Shown here piece by piece: positions 14,773 through 20,838 of a stretch of 64,000 bases of DNA. Made by a program: the position numbers and the translations under genes. The notes under the pieces were generated by a model. That model saw only the letters and a program-made list of their open reading frames with translations, ran no database searches and was not told where the DNA came from. The DNA lies in assembly GCA_964389975.1 (NCBI GenBank), contig CAYMGJ010000002.1, positions 3,109 to 67,108 on the forward strand, read 5' to 3'. This DNA is from an uncultured Candidatus Saccharibacteria bacterium (GTDB taxonomy: Bacteria; Patescibacteriota; Minisyncoccia; Phycocordibacterales; PALSA-1337). Position 1 is the stretch's first letter; each line of letters begins with the position of its first letter.

Positions 14773-15426
14773 ATGAGGGGATATGGTATCTCTTCAGGAA
14801 AGGTAAATATGGGACAGGATATAACTCTTTTTGTTGAAAAATACGCCGCACTTATTCGTACCGAGGCTCTTAGACATTGTCCTTCAGACATGTATTCCAT
14901 GTGGGGAGATGATCTCTTTTCCGTTGCTCTTGCAAGGGCTGCAAAGCTCCTGCCGTCCTTCGGGGAACTTGAAGACATAGCTCCCCTCGTTCGTATGTGT
15001 GCTCGTCAGGGGGCAATTGATTTTCTAAGGCATATCGATCATATATCTCGTGGACGTCGAAAACTGTTTTTCGAGGGAAAGATGAGAGATCCGTTATGCA
15101 GATCGATATCCTATGACATGGAATCCTCTGAGGGTATGCTTCTTTCTGAAGCTATCGCTGATCCGTCTGTACTTACATCATGGCAGTTACTCTTAAGGAC
15201 GGAATTATCTCAGATACTCAACTCTGTTGTTTCTTGCCTTAATGATCAACAACGACAAATTGTTGCCCTATATCATTTTGAAGAACTCAGCTACAAAGAA
15301 ATTGGAAAGATCTTTCGTTTTTCTGAGTCACGCGTTTGTCAAATCCATGGTAAGTCTATGGCGCGACTTCGCCGGGAAATCTCTAGGAAATTCGAGCTGG
15401 GGTTTTGTGATCTACTACCTACGTAA
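14773..15426 (+). CDS. Sigma-70 family alternative sigma factor (FliA/sigma-28-like regions 2 and 4)
   Basis: 217 aa; region 4.2 HTH LSYKEIGKIFRFSESRVCQIHGKSMARLRR; region 2-like DDLFSVALARAAKL...; start may be the internal ATG at 14809; visibly GC-richer than neighbours. Confidence 0.7.
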   Translation: MRGYGISSGKVNMGQDITLFVEKYAALIRTEALRHCPSDMYSMWGDDLFSVALARAAKLLPSFGELEDIAPLVRMCARQGAIDFLRHIDHISRGRRKLFFEGKMRDPLCRSISYDMESSEGMLLSEAIADPSVLTSWQLLLRTELSQILNSVVSCLNDQQRQIVALYHFEELSYKEIGKIFRFSESRVCQIHGKSMARLRREISRKFELGFCDLLPT

Positions 15427-15520: not shown

Positions 15521-15594
15521 TGCCGGATCGTCTAAAGGTAGGACGTCGCTCTCTGAAAGCGAAAATTTTGGTTCGATTCCAAGTCCGGCAGCCA
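15521..15594 (+). tRNA. tRNA-Gln (anticodon CUG), CCA encoded
   Basis: Acceptor TGCCGGA/TCCGGCA with U1:A72 and G73 discriminator (both typical of tRNA-Gln), anticodon stem TCGCT/AGCGA loop CTCTGAA, T-arm TTTGG-TTCGATT-CCAAG, 3' GCCA. Confidence 0.85.
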
Positions 15595-15635
15595 GTTTGA
15601 GACACGTTCGGACTCCGAGGAGCCTGTAAAATGCA

Positions 15636-16853
15636 ATGGCTAACAAAAAATCTAAAAAACAAAAAAGGAAGAAAACTCTACCTGTGGGATGGAAAAAAGA
15701 TGGGAAGAATTACCTCTATTATTTCAAGCCTAAAATCGCAAATACATATAAGATCAAAAAAATAGATTTTATAGGATTTGAAGTACCTCCAAAGGGCTTG
15801 AATTTATATGGGACGGGAGGTGGCTTTAATATGCGTCAAGCTAATAAGGTGGGAGGGAGTCATTTTTTGGCGTCCATAGAGAACAAATATAAAAAACAGA
15901 TTCATCTGACGATATTCAGCAACGGAAACGGTTCTAGGTCATTCAAGATCTTAAATAAGAACATTTCAATATCTCTTTCCTTTGAAAACTTTTCTGAAGT
16001 TATAAAGGATCTGGGTTATGAGATTAAGGCCAATCGAGACAAGGTTGTTATTAAGAGGTTGGCAAATTTTTTCCCAAAGGAGCTCTCTGCAGATCAAACG
16101 AGCGATTCTGCCGGAGCTAAGCTTGGAGATATTAACTTGAATGCTTTGGATGAAATAGGGCACGAGGCAGTTGCTGATTTTATAAAAAAGTATATTTCCT
16201 TGAATGCTGAAAATAATGAGGTATTAGAAAAGCTGCAAACAAATCTTGTTCTTCAGGGACAGAAGAAGACTCTTGATCAGGTCATAGCTAAGTTCGAATC
16301 TCGTTTGAAGGACGATGATTTGGATGAAAAGGACTGGCAAAAGTTTTTGCACGAGGAAGTGTTTTTCTTTCTTTCTAATTATGTTGAATCTATCAGGGAG
16401 ACAAATGTGAGTTTTGGTATGGCTGATGAAAGAGAAAGAAAGCCAGATTTCGTTTGGATCGATCTTTACGGATTTCTTGATGTGTTTGAGATAAAAACGC
16501 CGCAAACTGAGATTCTGGCAAAGAAAATTGATGACAGTCACGATAACTATTATTTTTCTCGATACGCTTCAATGGCAATCTCTCAGATCGAGAAATATAT
16601 GCTCTATTTGGAAAGAAATATTGATAATTATCAAAAATATCTTTCCCGTCAAACAAAGATTCCATTCTCGGTACTAAAGCCAAAAGCTTTCTTAATTATT
16701 GGCAACACGAAAGAATTTGAGACAAATGAAAAGAAGAAAAGAGATTTCAGAGTATTAAGGAGACTCTTCAAGAATATTGAGTTTATTACTTTTGATGAGC
16801 TTTTAGATAACCTTAAGAACTTGGCAAGCAAATTTGAAAAAGAAAAAAAATGA
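15636..16853 (+). CDS. Shedu-like anti-phage nuclease candidate (C-terminal DUF4263 PD-(D/E)xK domain; Lys-rich N-terminus and variable N-domain)
   Basis: 405 aa; C-terminal region matches DUF4263 landmarks: KDWQKFLHEEVF, PDFVWIDLYGFLDVFEIKTP (D...D-x-x-E-x-K), QIEKYMLYL (QxxxY), FLIIGNTKEF, EFITFDELLDNL; immediately 3' of tRNA-Gln. Confidence 0.6.
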   Translation: MANKKSKKQKRKKTLPVGWKKDGKNYLYYFKPKIANTYKIKKIDFIGFEVPPKGLNLYGTGGGFNMRQANKVGGSHFLASIENKYKKQIHLTIFSNGNGSRSFKILNKNISISLSFENFSEVIKDLGYEIKANRDKVVIKRLANFFPKELSADQTSDSAGAKLGDINLNALDEIGHEAVADFIKKYISLNAENNEVLEKLQTNLVLQGQKKTLDQVIAKFESRLKDDDLDEKDWQKFLHEEVFFFLSNYVESIRETNVSFGMADERERKPDFVWIDLYGFLDVFEIKTPQTEILAKKIDDSHDNYYFSRYASMAISQIEKYMLYLERNIDNYQKYLSRQTKIPFSVLKPKAFLIIGNTKEFETNEKKKRDFRVLRRLFKNIEFITFDELLDNLKNLASKFEKEKK

Positions 16854-17425
16854 AAAAAAGTGATGTGCTACAACTAATTAAAAATGATCCATGGATGATG
16901 AATATCATCCATATCGCCGAAAAGCTCAACCTTCCAGACTGGGTAATCGGAGCTGGTTTTGTCAGGAATAAGGTATGGGATCATTTGCATGGATATTCAA
17001 ATAAGGAAGTGGATACCCGGGACATCGACTTGGTGTATTTCGATCCAAATGGAAATGACCAGAAAGCAGATGAAGAACTATCATTGAAGCTTACCAAAGA
17101 AACCGGAATAAGCTTTGAGATAGTAAATCAGTTCTATGCCCATAAATGGAACGGCATACCCCCATACACTTCTACAGAGGATGCTATAGCTACATGGCCA
17201 GAAACGGCAACGGCTGTAGGAGTGACCTTGAAGGATGGTGAGCTTTGGCTAATTGCTCCATACACCATTGATGATATGGTTAATGTGATAGCTCGTCCAA
17301 GCCCTAGATTCAAAGGAAATCTTGAGGTGGTTAAGAAAAGAGCAGAAAGCAAGAAGTGGACGGAGAAATATCCAAAACTCAAGTTTGAGGATGTTTGGCC
17401 ATCGTTCCGAGAAGGGTCAAAATGA
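16850..17425 (+). CDS. Minimal nucleotidyltransferase-fold protein (pol-beta superfamily)
   Basis: 191 aa; hGxG...DxD signature IGAGFVRNKVWDHLHG...DIDLVYFD; ATGA start/stop overlap with the upstream Shedu-like gene (translational coupling). Confidence 0.55.
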   Translation: MKKSDVLQLIKNDPWMMNIIHIAEKLNLPDWVIGAGFVRNKVWDHLHGYSNKEVDTRDIDLVYFDPNGNDQKADEELSLKLTKETGISFEIVNQFYAHKWNGIPPYTSTEDAIATWPETATAVGVTLKDGELWLIAPYTIDDMVNVIARPSPRFKGNLEVVKKRAESKKWTEKYPKLKFEDVWPSFREGSK

Positions 17426-17776
17426 CATACTTAGATACTCCTGAAAACCCTTGTGATGCTCGTGGTCTGCTTTTGTATGCTCGTCCAATTCCAAACTCAA
17501 GCGGTACCGTTTGTCCTTCATCTCTTGCAACTTTTTGTCATACTCAACACGTGCAATACTCTGGTCAATCAGTAAGTCCATCAATCGGTTTATACGAAAC
17601 TGTAGGGCATTGTATTCGCTCTGTACACGTCCAACCTGTGCGTGATGGTATTCCACTTCGTTCTCGTTTGTCTTTCGTAGCTCGGTTACAAGATGTTCAA
17701 TAACGACATCGGGTATGTCGCTGAACTTTTGGAATGCTTGGGAGCTTCGTTGTTGTGTATGAAAGTCATCTTTCAT
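17417..17776 (-). CDS. Hypothetical coiled-coil protein (possibly a gene fragment)
   Basis: 119 aa, charged/helical, no recognisable motif; opposite strand, wedged between the island genes and a pseudogene. Confidence 0.3.
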   Translation of the reverse strand: MKDDFHTQQRSSQAFQKFSDIPDVVIEHLVTELRKTNENEVEYHHAQVGRVQSEYNALQFRINRLMDLLIDQSIARVEYDKKLQEMKDKRYRLSLELDEHTKADHEHHKGFQEYLSMSF

Positions 17777-17828
17777 ACGCTTTACTTTAGTTTACAGATG
17801 GTAGGAAAGCAATCTATAATGAAGTCTC

Positions 17829-18140
17829 TATGGAAGAGATTAAAAAAGATGAAGCGTTAGCAAAACTATCCAAGCAAAACGTGTATACAGGATTTAAGGT
17901 CTTGTTTAGTTATTTGGGTCTTTATAAGCGACAGATAATAGCGAGTCGTTTGAGGAACTTATGAAGAATAGAACGACCTTCATTATTGCTCACAGGCTTT
18001 CGACGGTCAGAAAAGCTGATAGTATCCTTGTTTTCAAGGAAGGTTCGATGATTGAAAAAGGGACGCATTCAGAATTGTTAAAAATTGAAGGAGGTGAATA
18101 TCGACGCCTATACGAGTTACAAATAGGACTTACAGAGTAA
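17829..18140 (+). pseudogene. Decayed C-terminal fragment of an ABC exporter ATP-binding domain (MsbA-like)
   Basis: Two frames read ...YKRQIIASRLRNL* (ABC signature/Q-R-Q-R-I-A-I-A-R-A-like remnant) then, frameshifted with Walker B deleted, MKNRTTFIIAHRLSTVRKADSILVFKEGSMIEKGTHSELLKIEGGEYRRLYELQ (H-loop and C-terminal tail); no TMD or Walker A upstream. Confidence 0.6.
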
Positions 18141-18384: not shown

Positions 18385-19029
18385 ATGAAGATTTTGTATG
18401 AAGTCAAACGAATCGAAGTCAAACGTACGTTTGTTATAGCAGATCATGTTGCTCATATGCATAACGGTAAGAAGTTAGGTAATAATCGTACTTTCTTAAA
18501 GAATATTTCTGAACAAGAATTTGAAAAAAAGTTAAGAGATATAAAATCAAAAATTTTGAAACTCAAAGAAAAAGATATAGACAAGTTGGTATCTCCTGAA
18601 TATGCCAAAAGAATTGAGGCATATAATAAGAGTAAGTGGTTTTTGGTAGAAATAAGTCCAAAGGAGCTTGGGGTGTGGAAACGAGCTGGTGGATTACCCC
18701 TGAGATGGACTAATCAGAGTTTGGTTGAAACGGCTGAAAAGGTAAGAAGAGGTTTTCTTCGAAATTCAAAATCTCTTAAAAGAAGGCCTAAACATACCAT
18801 TCCAAATATCTTAAATATAAAAGATCATATGCAACAAAGAGAGAAGTATCTGTATCCGATAGTATTTAAAAATGACACAGGAACACGAGGTAGAAAAAGA
18901 TTAAAAAGAAAGATGGTGGGTGATATTGATGATGGAAATATGAGATCTATTGCCTTGGCGATGAGTGGAAAGAATACACTCATTGTCTATTTCGGAGTTC
19001 CAACACATTCCCATGAACCACAAACCTAA
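18385..19029 (+). CDS. Hypothetical basic protein
   Basis: 214 aa, Lys/Arg-rich, no motif recognised. Confidence 0.45.
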   Translation: MKILYEVKRIEVKRTFVIADHVAHMHNGKKLGNNRTFLKNISEQEFEKKLRDIKSKILKLKEKDIDKLVSPEYAKRIEAYNKSKWFLVEISPKELGVWKRAGGLPLRWTNQSLVETAEKVRRGFLRNSKSLKRRPKHTIPNILNIKDHMQQREKYLYPIVFKNDTGTRGRKRLKRKMVGDIDDGNMRSIALAMSGKNTLIVYFGVPTHSHEPQT

Positions 19030-19381: not shown

Positions 19382-19930
19382 ATGAAGAAAGAAATTGAGG
19401 TAAAAGTGAAGGTGTCTGATATTGATTCAGTTATAAAGTCACTATCAAATCTGGGGTGCATTTTGAGTGAACCAGTTACTCAAAATGATGTTGTTTATAT
19501 AAACTATAATCGCCCATTTATCGATTTCAGAGAAGGGGATATATTTCTACGTATTAGGAAGACGCAAGGTAAGGTGATATTCACTCTTAAGAAGGGAGAG
19601 GAAATGAATTCTATAGAAAAAGAATTTTCCGTAGATGATGCACAACAACTTCATGACACCCTCACACTTCTTGGCTTTCGTCCTGAAGTTGAAGTGACAA
19701 AAATACGGAGGAAGACTTCATATAATAATTATGAAATTTGTATTGATGATGTTCCTGGGCTCGGTTTCTTTATTGAACTCGAAGAAATCACAGAAAATGA
19801 TGCTATTGTTACTCAAAATGCAATGATTAATTTTCTAAACTCTATCGGTATAGATACAAAAGATAGAGTTATGAATGGATATGACACGCTTACATGGCTC
19901 AAGAATAATCCAGGACATCCTGTGAATTGA
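19382..19930 (+). CDS. CYTH-domain protein (class IV adenylyl cyclase CyaB / triphosphate tunnel metalloenzyme fold)
   Basis: 182 aa; N-terminal EIEVKVKV (ExExK) motif, FLRIRK...GKVIFTLKKGEE, later LGFFIELEEI acidic strand; length and motif order typical of CyaB-like CYTH. Confidence 0.75.
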   Translation: MKKEIEVKVKVSDIDSVIKSLSNLGCILSEPVTQNDVVYINYNRPFIDFREGDIFLRIRKTQGKVIFTLKKGEEMNSIEKEFSVDDAQQLHDTLTLLGFRPEVEVTKIRRKTSYNNYEICIDDVPGLGFFIELEEITENDAIVTQNAMINFLNSIGIDTKDRVMNGYDTLTWLKNNPGHPVN

Positions 19931-19954
19931 TACAAAAGCTACATTTAAAATTCT

Positions 19955-20407
19955 ATGAATAATCGATTGCCACTTGAAATATTTGCTATATATCTTTCTC
20001 CATATTCAGCTCATGCCATTGAAGTAGATGGAAAGGTTTTTCCAACACTCGAACATGCATATCAATGTCAGAGGTATACAGATGACAGTATTATTGAAGA
20101 GATTCGCAAACAAAGGAGTCCTGTGTTGGCTTGGGAGACATCCTCAAGATATAAACACATACAGATTCCGGAATTCAAGAATGAAAATTATAAGTTAAAA
20201 GTTATGGAATATCTCATGCGTCTCAAGGCTTCGCAACATGAGGAGATACGAAAGATATTACGAGATTCAGGTAATATACCTATTGTAAAACATATCACCA
20301 CATATCCACCTGGTGATGGATTTTGGGATGATGGAGAAGATGGTACGGGTTTTAATCATATAGGAAAAATATGGATGAAAATTCGTGAAGAATTAAGAAA
20401 TAATTAA
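19955..20407 (+). CDS. NADAR-domain protein (YbiA-like; ADP-ribose/N-glycoside processing fold)
   Basis: 150 aa; EHAYQCQRY, LAWETS, KLKVMEYLMRLKASQHEEIRKILRDSGNIPIVKHI, DGFWDDGEDGTGFNHIGKIWMKIREEL match the NADAR (DUF1768) pattern (F-x-G-x-G-x-D-G-x-G-x-N-x-L-G). Confidence 0.7.
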   Translation: MNNRLPLEIFAIYLSPYSAHAIEVDGKVFPTLEHAYQCQRYTDDSIIEEIRKQRSPVLAWETSSRYKHIQIPEFKNENYKLKVMEYLMRLKASQHEEIRKILRDSGNIPIVKHITTYPPGDGFWDDGEDGTGFNHIGKIWMKIREELRNN

Positions 20408-20412
20408 AATCA

Positions 20413-20838
20413 ATGCAGTCAGACATAATTTCATATCTTAATAGTCAATCAGTTGGAGTTCTTGCTCTTGAGAGAGTAGATGGTGCTCCTCATGGAGCCA
20501 CACTTCACTATGTATATAGCCCATCTTTGAATGCGCTACTTTTTGAAACTCACAAAGACTCTCGTAAGGCAGAGTTATTGATATCAAAGAATACAGCCCG
20601 AGCATCATTTGTTGTGGGAACAGATGAATCAACCAAGATAACACTTCAGATAGATGGGAGTGTTCATATTCTCACTCAAGAAGAAAGGATAATCTTTGAA
20701 CAGGAGTATATTAGAAAGTTTCAGAAAAAAGCTGAGAAGATGAAGAGTGATGCTATTGTCTGTTTCAAGCTTGTTCCTCATTGGTGGAGATTTATCGATT
20801 GGTCATCTTCAGAGGGGAAGAAGGTGTTAACATCTTAA
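20413..20838 (+). CDS. Pyridoxamine 5'-phosphate oxidase-like FMN-binding split-barrel protein (general stress protein 26 family)
   Basis: 141 aa; size and pattern (GVLALERVDGAPHGATLHYV...) of PNPOx-like small FMN-binding proteins. Confidence 0.55.
   Translation: MQSDIISYLNSQSVGVLALERVDGAPHGATLHYVYSPSLNALLFETHKDSRKAELLISKNTARASFVVGTDESTKITLQIDGSVHILTQEERIIFEQEYIRKFQKKAEKMKSDAIVCFKLVPHWWRFIDWSSSEGKKVLTS

Follow-up and report, generated by a model that had tools for sequence, protein, structure and literature searches.

A gene for a Shedu-like nuclease (SduA) that begins shortly after a tRNA-Gln gene, and whose stop codon overlaps the start codon of a gene for a minimal nucleotidyltransferase (NTase), raises the question of whether the two genes form an undescribed two-gene variant of the Shedu defence system or whether an ordinary Shedu gene has acquired a passenger. 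The locus was found in a stretch of 64,000 nucleotides, referred to here as the window, from the genome of a member of the Patescibacteria (Parcubacteria-type), an ultra-small CPR bacterium. Its comparison with related loci argues against cooperation between NTase and Shedu, and the locus is probably a small acquired defence islet composed of a stand-alone Shedu nuclease and a passenger NTase. The features on which this reading is built are the following.

15521..15594, + strand: tRNA-Gln(CTG) with encoded CCA (ARAGORN; Rfam RF00005, 59 bits)
15595..17460, + strand: transferred two-gene cassette of ~1.86 kb, made up of a spacer, the SduA and NTase genes and a tail of 35 nt (alignment to L027)
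15636..16853, + strand: SduA PD-(D/E)xK nuclease, 405 aa (PF14082, PADLOC SduA, fold match)
16843..16853, + strand: SduA/NTase junction, an A8 run leading into the ATGA stop/start overlap
16850..17425, + strand: minimal nucleotidyltransferase of PF06042 (DUF925, NTase group XX), 191 aa (PF06042, 2LA3)
17417..17776, − strand: probable recombinase relic, an internal fragment (119-aa ORF), convergent with SduA and NTase
17830..18140, + strand: decayed ABC exporter gene, with 44-aa N-terminal and 59-aa C-terminal pieces left and ~500 aa between them gone

The Shedu nuclease and its insertion site

The original prediction placed a DUF4263/Shedu nuclease domain in the C-terminal 150 residues of SduA, an assignment on which profile searches, fold comparison and catalytic columns agree. 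The SduA_C profile (PF14082) matches the protein with E = 2.5e-29 and 102.9 bits (cutoff 27) over positions 3–159 of 159, as do 19 SduA models of PADLOC (best E = 2.6e-30), and the motif segments that had been quoted are all found in the translation. Within the nuclease domain (residues 230–390, nt 16323–16805), the D...ExK...QxxxY alignment holds: Asp276, Asp282, Glu285, Lys287, Gln317 and Tyr321 are invariant in 26 family members, and the catalytic residues align with their counterparts in 8ps4 and 8ti9. A family profile retrieved 8ps4, 8ti9 and 8ti8 from the PDB at E = 1.9e-14 to 1.2e-10, and the best nine PDB matches of an AF2 model in Foldseek were all Shedu chains (8ti8, 8ps4, 8ti9, 8ps5; E 1e-8 to 7e-7, TM to target ≤0.69), with part of the nuclease core being weakly modelled (pLDDT <50, residues 248–281). 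The ORF at 15636–16853 is a genuine Shedu nuclease, in which an N-terminal domain of regulatory or sensor type is fused to the nuclease.

Ahead of the nuclease domain, SduA displays a Lys-rich tail (residues 1–17), a clade-specific N-terminal domain (residues ~18–150) and helical linkers. The N-terminal part had been left without an assignment, and this was confirmed: no Pfam match was obtained for the N-terminal ~200 residues, and when 1.84 billion representatives were searched exhaustively, 10 matches only were returned, comprising short proteins and the family members P0003 and P0064, with no detectable foreign domain in any of them. The N-terminal domain gave no clear PDB match in a whole-chain fold search; it is well modelled (pLDDT 79–93 at residues ~10–150) and contains motifs conserved in the family.

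The solved Shedu proteins from B. cereus (8ti8/8ti9) and E. coli (8ps4/8ps5) share with SduA the C-terminal DUF4263 PD-(D/E)xK domain with its D...ExK...QxxxY signature, a size of ~400 residues, a helical linker, the arrangement of an N-terminal regulatory part before a C-terminal nuclease, and a location on mobile or defence islets (PMC10441436). They differ from it in sequence, with identities of about 16–22%, and in the N-terminal ~200 residues, for which relatives are detectable within a largely Patescibacteria clade alone, and SduA has an ultra-small CPR bacterium as its host. Aligned over all 410 columns, the SduA model and E. coli SduA superpose with a TM of 0.35 and an rmsd of 17.5. 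By analogy with the solved proteins, SduA would form a homo-oligomer in which the N-terminal domain holds the C-terminal nuclease off until a feature of invading DNA is sensed, whereupon the nuclease would cut DNA. Both the anti-phage function and the oligomeric gating are predicted on this basis.

The insertion site is the 3′ flank of a host gene, tRNA-Gln(CTG), and the start of SduA lies 42 nt beyond its 3′ end, as had been claimed. The tRNA was the only match in an Rfam scan of 14.5–20 kb, and a search of the whole window for an attR copy of its 3′ end (≤3 mismatches) recovered solely the tRNA itself. A promoter scan gave a number of sites not above chance and none between tRNA-Gln and SduA; that SduA is transcribed by read-through from the promoter of the tRNA is no more than a guess. 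Downstream of the gene pair, the decayed ABC-transporter remnants that had been reported are present at 17830–18140. Positions 17961–18140 encode the C-terminal end (~55 residues) of an ABCB/MsbA-type exporter (PDB matches, E down to 2e-23), and the 44-residue product of 17830–17964, which was matched by no tool, is presumably the N-terminus of the exporter. PADLOC scans of the CYTH, NADAR, PNPOx-like and AAA_28 genes further downstream gave no match; the defence island is not extended past ~18.2 kb.

The nucleotidyltransferase and its linkage to Shedu genes

The second gene had been read as a nucleotidyltransferase of the pol-beta fold, and its product indeed matches PF06042 (NTP_transf_6) over residues 22–178 with E = 1.2e-49 and 168.7 bits (cutoff 25). 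The hG[GS] motif (Gly34-Ala-Gly36) and the DxD motif (Asp58-x-Asp60) are intact, with Gly34, Gly36, Asp58 and Asp60 invariant in 32 homologues. At the profile level NTase matches PDB entry 2LA3 (E = 7.7e-25), and its AF2 model (pLDDT 86.8) superposes on this structure with a TM of 0.83, followed by class II CCA-adding enzymes (TM ~0.5); the modelled fold resembles the head of a CCA-adding enzyme. The protein in 2LA3, S. pneumoniae NP_344798.1, is likewise a single-domain minimal nucleotidyltransferase with hG[GS] and DxD motifs, and is matched over its full length. Neither the substrate nor the role of PF06042/DUF925 is known (PMC2794190), and the position after SduA is the sole feature that distinguishes the NTase of the window from unlinked members of the family.

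The overlap of the SduA stop codon and the NTase start codon is real: the two share the sequence ATGA at 16850–16853. Of the 38 crude same-strand gene pairs of the window no other overlaps by 4 nt, and 19 of the 38 are spaced by ≤20 nt. In L027, the one other locus with the pair, the A8 run that precedes the overlap is A7, as a result of which SduA is 3 residues longer and the overlap measures 14 nt. The genes are tightly arranged at both loci and, as judged from these overlaps, operonically or translationally coupled. Substitutions between the two loci point to purifying selection on both genes, with dN/dS values of ~0.13 for SduA and 0.43 for NTase, the latter being maintained and not decaying.

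A two-gene Shedu variant with NTase as its second component was not borne out by the gene neighbourhoods of relatives. Among 15 independent loci of the full-length family to which SduA belongs, and among about nine more distant Shedu loci, NTase is present at none, and a tblastn search with NTase of 26 loci of SduA relatives gave no match; the nearest outgroup relatives of SduA, at 70–71% identity (L028, L040/L041, L042 and L043), are among those without it. Conversely, SduA is absent from all eight independent NTase loci. These include the closest NTase relatives (77–78% identity; L030 and L031), which adjoin HAD and NUDIX genes, while those related at 68% (L032–L036) lie beside a MetRS gene or between NUDIX and PLD genes, downstream of DnaJ and DAC. 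Annotated homologues carried by plasmids and chromids stand alone. The sample, 15 SduA-family loci and eight NTase loci, is one in which a rare association within a sub-clade could have been missed. The sole second instance of the pair, in L027, has 97% nucleotide identity to the first, and the two appear to be one lineage of the same cassette and not an independent recurrence. This lack of recurrent linkage is the outcome that had been named in advance as refuting the two-gene variant. Since the genes are paired only in this lineage, the locus looks like an ordinary Shedu system with a passenger gene, and not like a new two-gene system.

Nor was a nucleotidyltransferase found among described Shedu partners: NTase has no PADLOC match, and a literature search on DUF4263 together with nucleotidyltransferases, and on 2LA3, yielded nothing relevant and no precedent. 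The neighbours of SduA vary across the 15 family loci, in agreement with Shedu working as a single gene in defence-island or mobile-element contexts (PMC10441436). The premise that Shedu is a single-gene system no longer holds strictly, KELShedu having two components (PMC12577705). In KELShedu (KELA+KELB) and in type 1F Shedu, as here, a DUF4263 nuclease and a second gene share an operon; the second gene there encodes a protein that binds dsDNA or a histidine kinase, in a pairing either proven experimentally or recurrent (PMC12577705; PMC10441436), whereas the PF06042 neighbour in the window recurs at no other sampled Shedu locus.

A shared cassette and the serine recombinase of its relatives

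That the islet was acquired at the 3′ flank of tRNA-Gln, as originally proposed, is now backed by L027. Window positions 15564–17460 match this contig by blastn with 97.3% identity over 1,897 nt. The blastn match starts within the tRNA, and an element carrying the tRNA 3′ end was considered and discarded, as base-by-base alignment places the start of the block after the host-specific tRNAs. The left border lies at most about 12 nt past the tRNA 3′ end and the right border is sharp, at 17460/17461. In the same alignment, neither the tRNAs nor the outer flanks on either side correspond, being unrelated or divergent: the cassette of L027 follows a different tRNA-Gln, the FtsX encoded upstream has just 43% amino-acid identity to that of the window, and gene order differs. 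A 97%-identical block in an otherwise divergent genome demonstrates horizontal acquisition directly and shows that SduA and NTase travel as a cassette. Since the block holds exactly these two genes between sharp borders, with no recombinase within, the pair acts as a transfer unit; a functional two-gene module would also move in this way.

The transfer would be an artefact, and SduA and NTase a vertically inherited resident pair, if L027 were a chimeric metagenome assembly. This is very improbable. The L027 contig, from Logan, was assembled automatically and measures only 3,047 bp, and tRNA genes are classic joints of chimeras; however, an identity of 97.3% and not 100% makes L027 a distinct sequence, the left junction is spanned by no exact k-mer of assembler length common to both sequences, with mismatches every few bases from the 3′ half of the tRNA through the 12 nt that open the spacer, the right flank diverges abruptly, and related elements in other genomes are also found at tRNA flanks with intact recombinases.

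It is with such a recombinase that SduA is recurrently associated. Clustering of the neighbours at the 15 SduA loci gave one recurrent family only, a large serine recombinase convergent with SduA and located at tRNA 3′ flanks; this neighbour, and its relic in the window, had been missed earlier. In the relatives the enzyme is intact (Resolvase, Recombinase and zinc-ribbon domains), and SduA and the recombinase are found directly after a tRNA gene. Of the SduA-bearing elements, those of L027 and L014 immediately follow the 3′ end of tRNA-Gln(ctg), that of L004 is close to tRNA-Gln(ttg) and that of L040 comes after tRNA-Arg, with partial tRNA 3′ ends at L041, L043 and L028; in L014 a type I R-M system adjoins the element. 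Between SduA and the recombinase there is a variable slot, which is occupied by NTase in the window and by an orphan 112-residue ORF, unrelated to NTase, in L040/L041, where it overlaps SduA by 11 nt. In L028, L014 and L043 SduA and the recombinase abut.

These elements resemble small integrative islands mobilised by large serine recombinases (CcrB/XisF-like), and genomic islets at tRNA flanks, in that SduA and a convergent recombinase are located directly after a tRNA gene, and differ from them in being unusually small, about 3 kb, with one cargo gene and an optional slot gene. No long direct repeats were seen at the SduA elements, as expected for serine recombinases. Insertion at tRNA flanks is likely to be mediated by the recombinase.

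In the window, the position and orientation of the recombinase in L014, L028, L040 and L043 are those of the ORF at 17417–17776, an orphan whose sole relative is a partial match, P0214. The Resolvase catalytic domain, the Recombinase domain and the zinc ribbon are all absent from this ORF, which was for that reason filed as a probable gene fragment and not as a recombinase. The profile built from the four recombinases adjacent to SduA matches it at positions 345–426 (E = 2.6e-6 in a two-sequence search) and P0214 collinearly at 397–511 (E = 1.6e-8), and residues 333–412 of the L004 recombinase match it by tblastn (E = 3e-4); there is also a weak match to CcrC (E = 0.074), and neither the L028 nor the L014 recombinase was matched in direct BLASTP. 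The scores are weak and fall in a coiled-coil region prone to compositional matches. With this moderate evidence, the ORF is probably a relic of the serine recombinase, corresponding to the coiled coil that follows the zinc ribbon and cut on its C-terminal side at the cassette border. A 36% amino-acid match of the ORF in L027 was set aside, being the product of 14 codons inside the shared block with no homology outside it. With no more than an internal fragment of the recombinase left, the islet of the window is probably immobile now.

A phage origin of the pair was also considered and dropped: scans of IMG/VR for the SduA and NTase families returned nothing, and PF06042 nucleotidyltransferases were absent from the phage records and viral collections searched. 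In the reading that we favour, that of a stand-alone Shedu nuclease with a passenger, NTase would have been captured in the cargo slot between SduA and the convergent recombinase, and would be a self-contained PF06042 enzyme beside SduA as the active component. It would be co-transcribed and co-transferred with SduA and yet represent a lineage-specific passenger and not a conserved Shedu partner. The delivering element would then have decayed, leaving the recombinase fragment, and the neighbouring ABC exporter would have been gutted.

Possible roles of the nucleotidyltransferase

Two other readings give NTase a part in defence. In the first, which is unlikely, the locus is a lineage-specific two-gene Shedu variant in which NTase and SduA act together. 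NTase might, for instance, add nucleotides to 3′ ends of nucleic acids sensed or created by Shedu, switch SduA off by nucleotidylation, or produce a small signal. The ATGA overlap, the transfer of both genes as a discrete 1.86-kb block into a divergent genome, and the purifying selection on both, with the catalytic motifs of NTase intact, are all compatible with such a variant. In addition, E. coli SduA is reported to sense DNA ends (10.1101/2023.08.10.552762), the fold of NTase is that of enzymes that add to 3′ ends, and multi-component Shedu systems exist, as exemplified by KELShedu (PMC12577705) and by type 1F with its histidine kinase. Against it stands, besides the missing recurrence at any of the sampled loci, the 97% identity of the two instances and the missing PADLOC match, the finding that neither partner is specialized: SduA has the same architecture and invariant residues as its relatives without NTase, and NTase is 77–78% identical to unlinked homologues. 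The slot that holds NTase is filled in L040 by an unrelated orphan ORF that likewise overlaps SduA, and the overlap geometry is not kept, with 4 nt in the window and 14 nt in L027. There is a slim chance that a nucleotidyltransferase resembling the CCA-adding head was recruited in this one lineage as a working Shedu partner, within a self-sufficient two-gene cassette that moves between tRNA-Gln flanks; such a partner might tail or cap DNA or RNA 3′ ends sensed or made by Shedu, or nucleotidylate SduA into an inactive state.

A nucleotidyltransferase beside a nuclease is also found in MNT-HEPN (MntA-HepT), where the MNT antitoxin silences the HEPN toxin through AMPylation, an analogy at which the original prediction had hinted. 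MntA and NTase show a marginal structural likeness (Foldseek E ~0.1, TM 0.24, about 80 residues). The nuclease of that system is a HEPN protein and that of the window a PD-(D/E)xK enzyme, and the gene order and missing co-occurrence of SduA and NTase are unlike those of a dedicated toxin–antitoxin pair.

The second reading, also improbable, is that NTase serves accessory defence, counter-defence or RNA repair independently of SduA and is not a neutral passenger, being selected for itself and stacked on Shedu as a second single-gene system, for instance by mending tRNA or RNA 3′ ends damaged in phage conflict. It accords with the likeness of NTase to the CCA-adding head, with the maintenance of the gene in the cassette, with the clustering of defence genes in islands (PMC10441436), and with the presence of PF06042 genes in regions that vary: next to ccdAB on a plasmid of Klebsiella, adjacent to an IS on a Pseudomonas plasmid, and with toxin–antitoxin genes in a cassette-like array of Vibrio. 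However, most close Patescibacteria relatives lie among housekeeping genes (MetRS, DnaJ, DAC, NUDIX, HAD), the gene has no PADLOC match, the family is absent from the phage and viral collections, and it has no known function (PMC2794190). The passenger reading, in which NTase is likely to be functionally independent of SduA, accounts best for the locus.

The SduA–NTase locus reveals no new defence principle. If NTase and Shedu did cooperate, this would be the first role for PF06042, a family of unknown function since 2009, and a new mode of Shedu regulation. What the locus adds is a well defined Shedu clade, largely of Patescibacteria, whose N-terminal domain is its own, and the observation that Shedu in tiny genomes is carried by elements of ~3 kb, which lie at the 3′ flanks of tRNA genes and combine a single nuclease and a single large serine recombinase with a slot for cargo. 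This is useful for the annotation of defence in CPR bacteria, in which such systems are sparsely described, and for the mining of small serine integrases with targets at tRNA flanks.

Gene content of the islet

The tRNA-Gln gene, both open reading frames and the ATGA overlap between the SduA stop and the NTase start lie where the original prediction had placed them. The sequence, also deposited as GCA_013572825.1, comes from a metagenome-assembled genome of Patescibacteria/Parcubacteria type, a placement with which the source names of homologues agree.

Features of the islet in the window
15521-15594, tRNA-Gln(CTG) gene (ARAGORN, confirmed by Rfam)
15636-16853, SduA, 405-residue Shedu-type ORF (ORF call)
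16850-17425, NTase, 191-residue nucleotidyltransferase ORF (ORF call)
17417-17776, minus strand, ORF at the recombinase position in the window
17961-18140, C-terminal piece (~55 residues) of an ABCB/MsbA-type ABC exporter (sequence matches)

The overlap alone carries little weight, because closely packed genes are the norm here: in the window, 19 of 38 same-strand gene pairs are no more than 20 nt apart.

Assignment of the first gene to the DUF4263/Shedu nucleases was borne out by profile searches, in which residues 230-390 matched the full Pfam SduA_C profile (PF14082; E = 2.5e-29) and the protein matched 19 PADLOC SduA models. SduA is one of ~67 sequences that form a compact family (47-100% identity, nearly all from Patescibacteria) with conservation spanning the full 400 residues. 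The catalytic columns Asp276, Asp282, Glu285, Lys287, Gln317 and Tyr321 are invariant in the family alignment and align with those of E. coli SduA (8ps4) and B. cereus Shedu (8ti8/8ti9) in profile searches (E = 1.9e-14 to 1.2e-10). The AF2 model (mean pLDDT 71.9; 79-93 in the N-terminal domain) gave significant PDB matches to Shedu structures only. Searched exhaustively against 1.84 billion representatives, the N-terminal 200 residues have no relatives outside the family, which points to a putative private sensor domain in this SduA clade and fits the variety already described among the N-terminal domains of Shedu proteins (PMC10441436).

The predicted nucleotidyltransferase identity of the second gene also held: the protein matches PF06042 (NTP_transf_6; E = 1.2e-49), with no PADLOC match, and its model (pLDDT 86.8) superposes on 2LA3, annotated as 'CCA-adding enzyme head domain', at a TM score of 0.83. 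The next structural matches are class II CCA-adding enzymes (TM ~0.5), while the likeness to MNT antitoxins is marginal. Gly34/Gly36 and Asp58/Asp60 are invariant across homologues. The protein is typical of PF06042/DUF925, which constitutes NTase-fold group XX and has a predicted activity (PMC2794190).

Recent transfer of the two-gene block

The only other locus with both genes, L027, is a 3-kb contig encoding SduA at 98% and NTase at 96% amino-acid identity, and its DNA is 97.3% identical to window positions 15564-17460. In a base-by-base alignment, differences run along the whole length of the two tRNA-Gln genes; high identity begins no more than ~12 nt past the tRNA 3' end and stops abruptly at 17460/17461, 35 nt beyond the NTase stop codon. 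The upstream FtsX genes are only 43% identical, and the CTP synthase and sigma-like genes present between FtsX and the tRNA of the window are missing from L027. Given this high identity amid a differing tRNA, FtsX and gene order, the 1.86-kb block with its two genes was recently transferred between genomes that are themselves divergent, and in each it occupies a site of one type; it carries no recombinase and has identical ends in both. The proposal of an acquired islet is thereby confirmed and the borders of the shared block are delimited. SduA and NTase thus travel together, and the two pairs represent one lineage and no independent recurrence.

Both genes look maintained, judging from dN/dS values of ~0.13 for SduA and ~0.43 for NTase, calculated from very few substitutions. 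The homopolymer at the junction is A8 in the window (16843-16850) and A7 in L027 (2103-2109), a difference that adds three residues to the C-terminus of SduA in L027 and extends the overlap from 4 to 14 nt; this site could be slippage-prone or reflect a sequencing or assembly error. That the L027 evidence as a whole is an assembly artefact is highly improbable.

Neighbours of SduA and NTase relatives

A search with tblastn for the NTase in 26 SduA-relative loci, fetched from genome and metagenome collections, gave no match in any, and none of the nearest outgroup SduA relatives (70-71% identity), individually inspected, has an NTase. Counting only loci with sufficient downstream sequence, the NTase accompanies SduA at 0 of 15 independent loci within its own full-length family, and at 0 of ~9 Shedu loci that are more distant. 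Neither family was present in the viral/phage collections searched, and the NTase is absent from the Shedu neighbours named in the literature, namely R-M, BREX, transposable elements, prophages, histidine kinases and KELA. With 806 matches, the NTase family is very large, and its members adjoin other genes: HAD-hydrolase and NUDIX genes for relatives at 77-78% identity, and, at 68%, MetRS or flanking NUDIX/PLD genes with DnaJ and DAC upstream; on plasmids and chromids, the annotated homologues stand alone. The pairing is not recurrent, the outcome that the original prediction had itself named as refuting it, and the undescribed two-gene Shedu–NTase system that it proposed is not supported. A functional module specific to this lineage would accord with the joint transfer and maintenance of both genes; beside these neighbourhood counts it is unlikely.

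PF06042 genes repeatedly adjoin NUDIX hydrolase genes in Patescibacteria, and Vibrio replicons have several of them each, within cassette-array-like regions alongside TA genes (loci for both: L030:455-2142; L033:5407-6546, also L034-L036; L038). These contexts hint that the family serves nucleotide metabolism or has an accessory role. An accessory NTase independently selected and stacked beside Shedu, for example for RNA or tRNA 3'-end repair, would suit the resemblance to CCA-adding enzymes; we consider this quite doubtful.

Neighbour clustering at 15 SduA loci identified one recurrent family only, a large serine recombinase similar to CcrB and XisF and made up of Resolvase, Recombinase and Zn-ribbon domains. 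It is convergent and immediately 3' of SduA in L028, L014, L040/L041 and L043; a more distant recombinase lies upstream in L004 and L002. In Patescibacteria, minimal elements of ~3 kb immediately follow tRNA genes for Gln or Arg.

Minimal elements with one SduA and one convergent large serine recombinase
L014:4105-7479
L040:3355-6382
L043:1-2549
L028:1850-4525

The L014 element occupies the 3' flank of tRNA-Gln(ctg), with the FtsE-FtsX-CTP synthase synteny of the window; those of L040 and L004 flank the 3' ends of tRNA-Arg and tRNA-Gln(ttg), respectively, and those of L041, L043 and L028 adjoin cut or remnant tRNA 3' ends. Type I R-M genes (HsdR, HsdM; L014:7794-11616) lie directly past the L014 element, making this tRNA-Gln site a genuine defence island. 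Between SduA and recombinase lies a variable cargo slot, empty in L028, L014 and L043, filled in L040/L041 by an unrelated orphan 112-residue ORF with its own SduA overlap, and occupied in the window by the NTase.

The minus-strand ORF 17417-17776 is an orphan with a sole relative, the partially matching protein P0214. A four-recombinase profile matches the ORF at profile positions 345-426 and P0214 collinearly at 397-511, and weak tblastn and CcrC matches also support a recombinase origin. These matches suggest that the ORF is a piece from the interior of a recombinase gene in decay, with its C-terminal side ending at the cassette border; as they fall in a coiled-coil region, the evidence is moderate.

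The 'ABC remnants' reported downstream are real, 17961-18140 being the C-terminal end of an exporter. We take 17830-17964 to be its N-terminus; of the gene (17830-18140) only the first 44 and the last 59 codons are left, in pieces overlapping by ATGA, just 3' of a strong promoter-like site (17791-17820; TTTACA-18-TATAAT, 11/12 matches). Between these remnants and a CYTH gene, a 214-residue Lys/Arg-rich ORF (18385-19029) has no Pfam, NCBIfam or PADLOC match. A compact nucleotide/ADP-ribose-flavoured trio follows (19382-20838), comprising CYTH (triphosphate tunnel), NADAR (ADP-ribose processing) and PNPOx-like genes, none matched by PADLOC. The small sigma-70-like ORF between CTP synthase and tRNA-Gln (14773-15426), with a strong region 4 and a weak region 2, is missing from the otherwise syntenic L014 and so may represent a further insertion at this hotspot. 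Small unrelated ORFs lie within 60 nt 3' of other SduA relatives (L013:1699-2268, with an RxxxxH motif that by eye looks HEPN-like; L004:9173-10029; L003:4745-5578); one is a DUF5677 protein and none is shared between loci. In L042 (577-3816) a 672-residue MORC/GHKL-type ATPase with a C-terminal sigma70_r4-like HTH (PADLOC MzaB, E = 6e-10) stops 19 nt 5' of a 70%-identical SduA relative, with RadC downstream, and may represent a different Shedu partnership.

Proposed origin and action of the islet

Taken together, SduA is probably a stand-alone Shedu in a decayed tRNA-flank mini-element, with the NTase as a passenger and an overlap of little weight. By analogy with 8ti8 and 8ps4, the nuclease would presumably act as a homo-oligomer, its private N-terminal domain holding the PD-(D/E)xK activity in check until DNA of an invader is sensed. 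The mini-element would have brought SduA in before decaying, and the NTase would be co-transcribed and co-transferred with a function of its own. The mini-element architecture is modestly new next to known integrative islets, and the SduA gene adds a member to the known Shedu family, within a private-N-domain clade in CPR bacteria.
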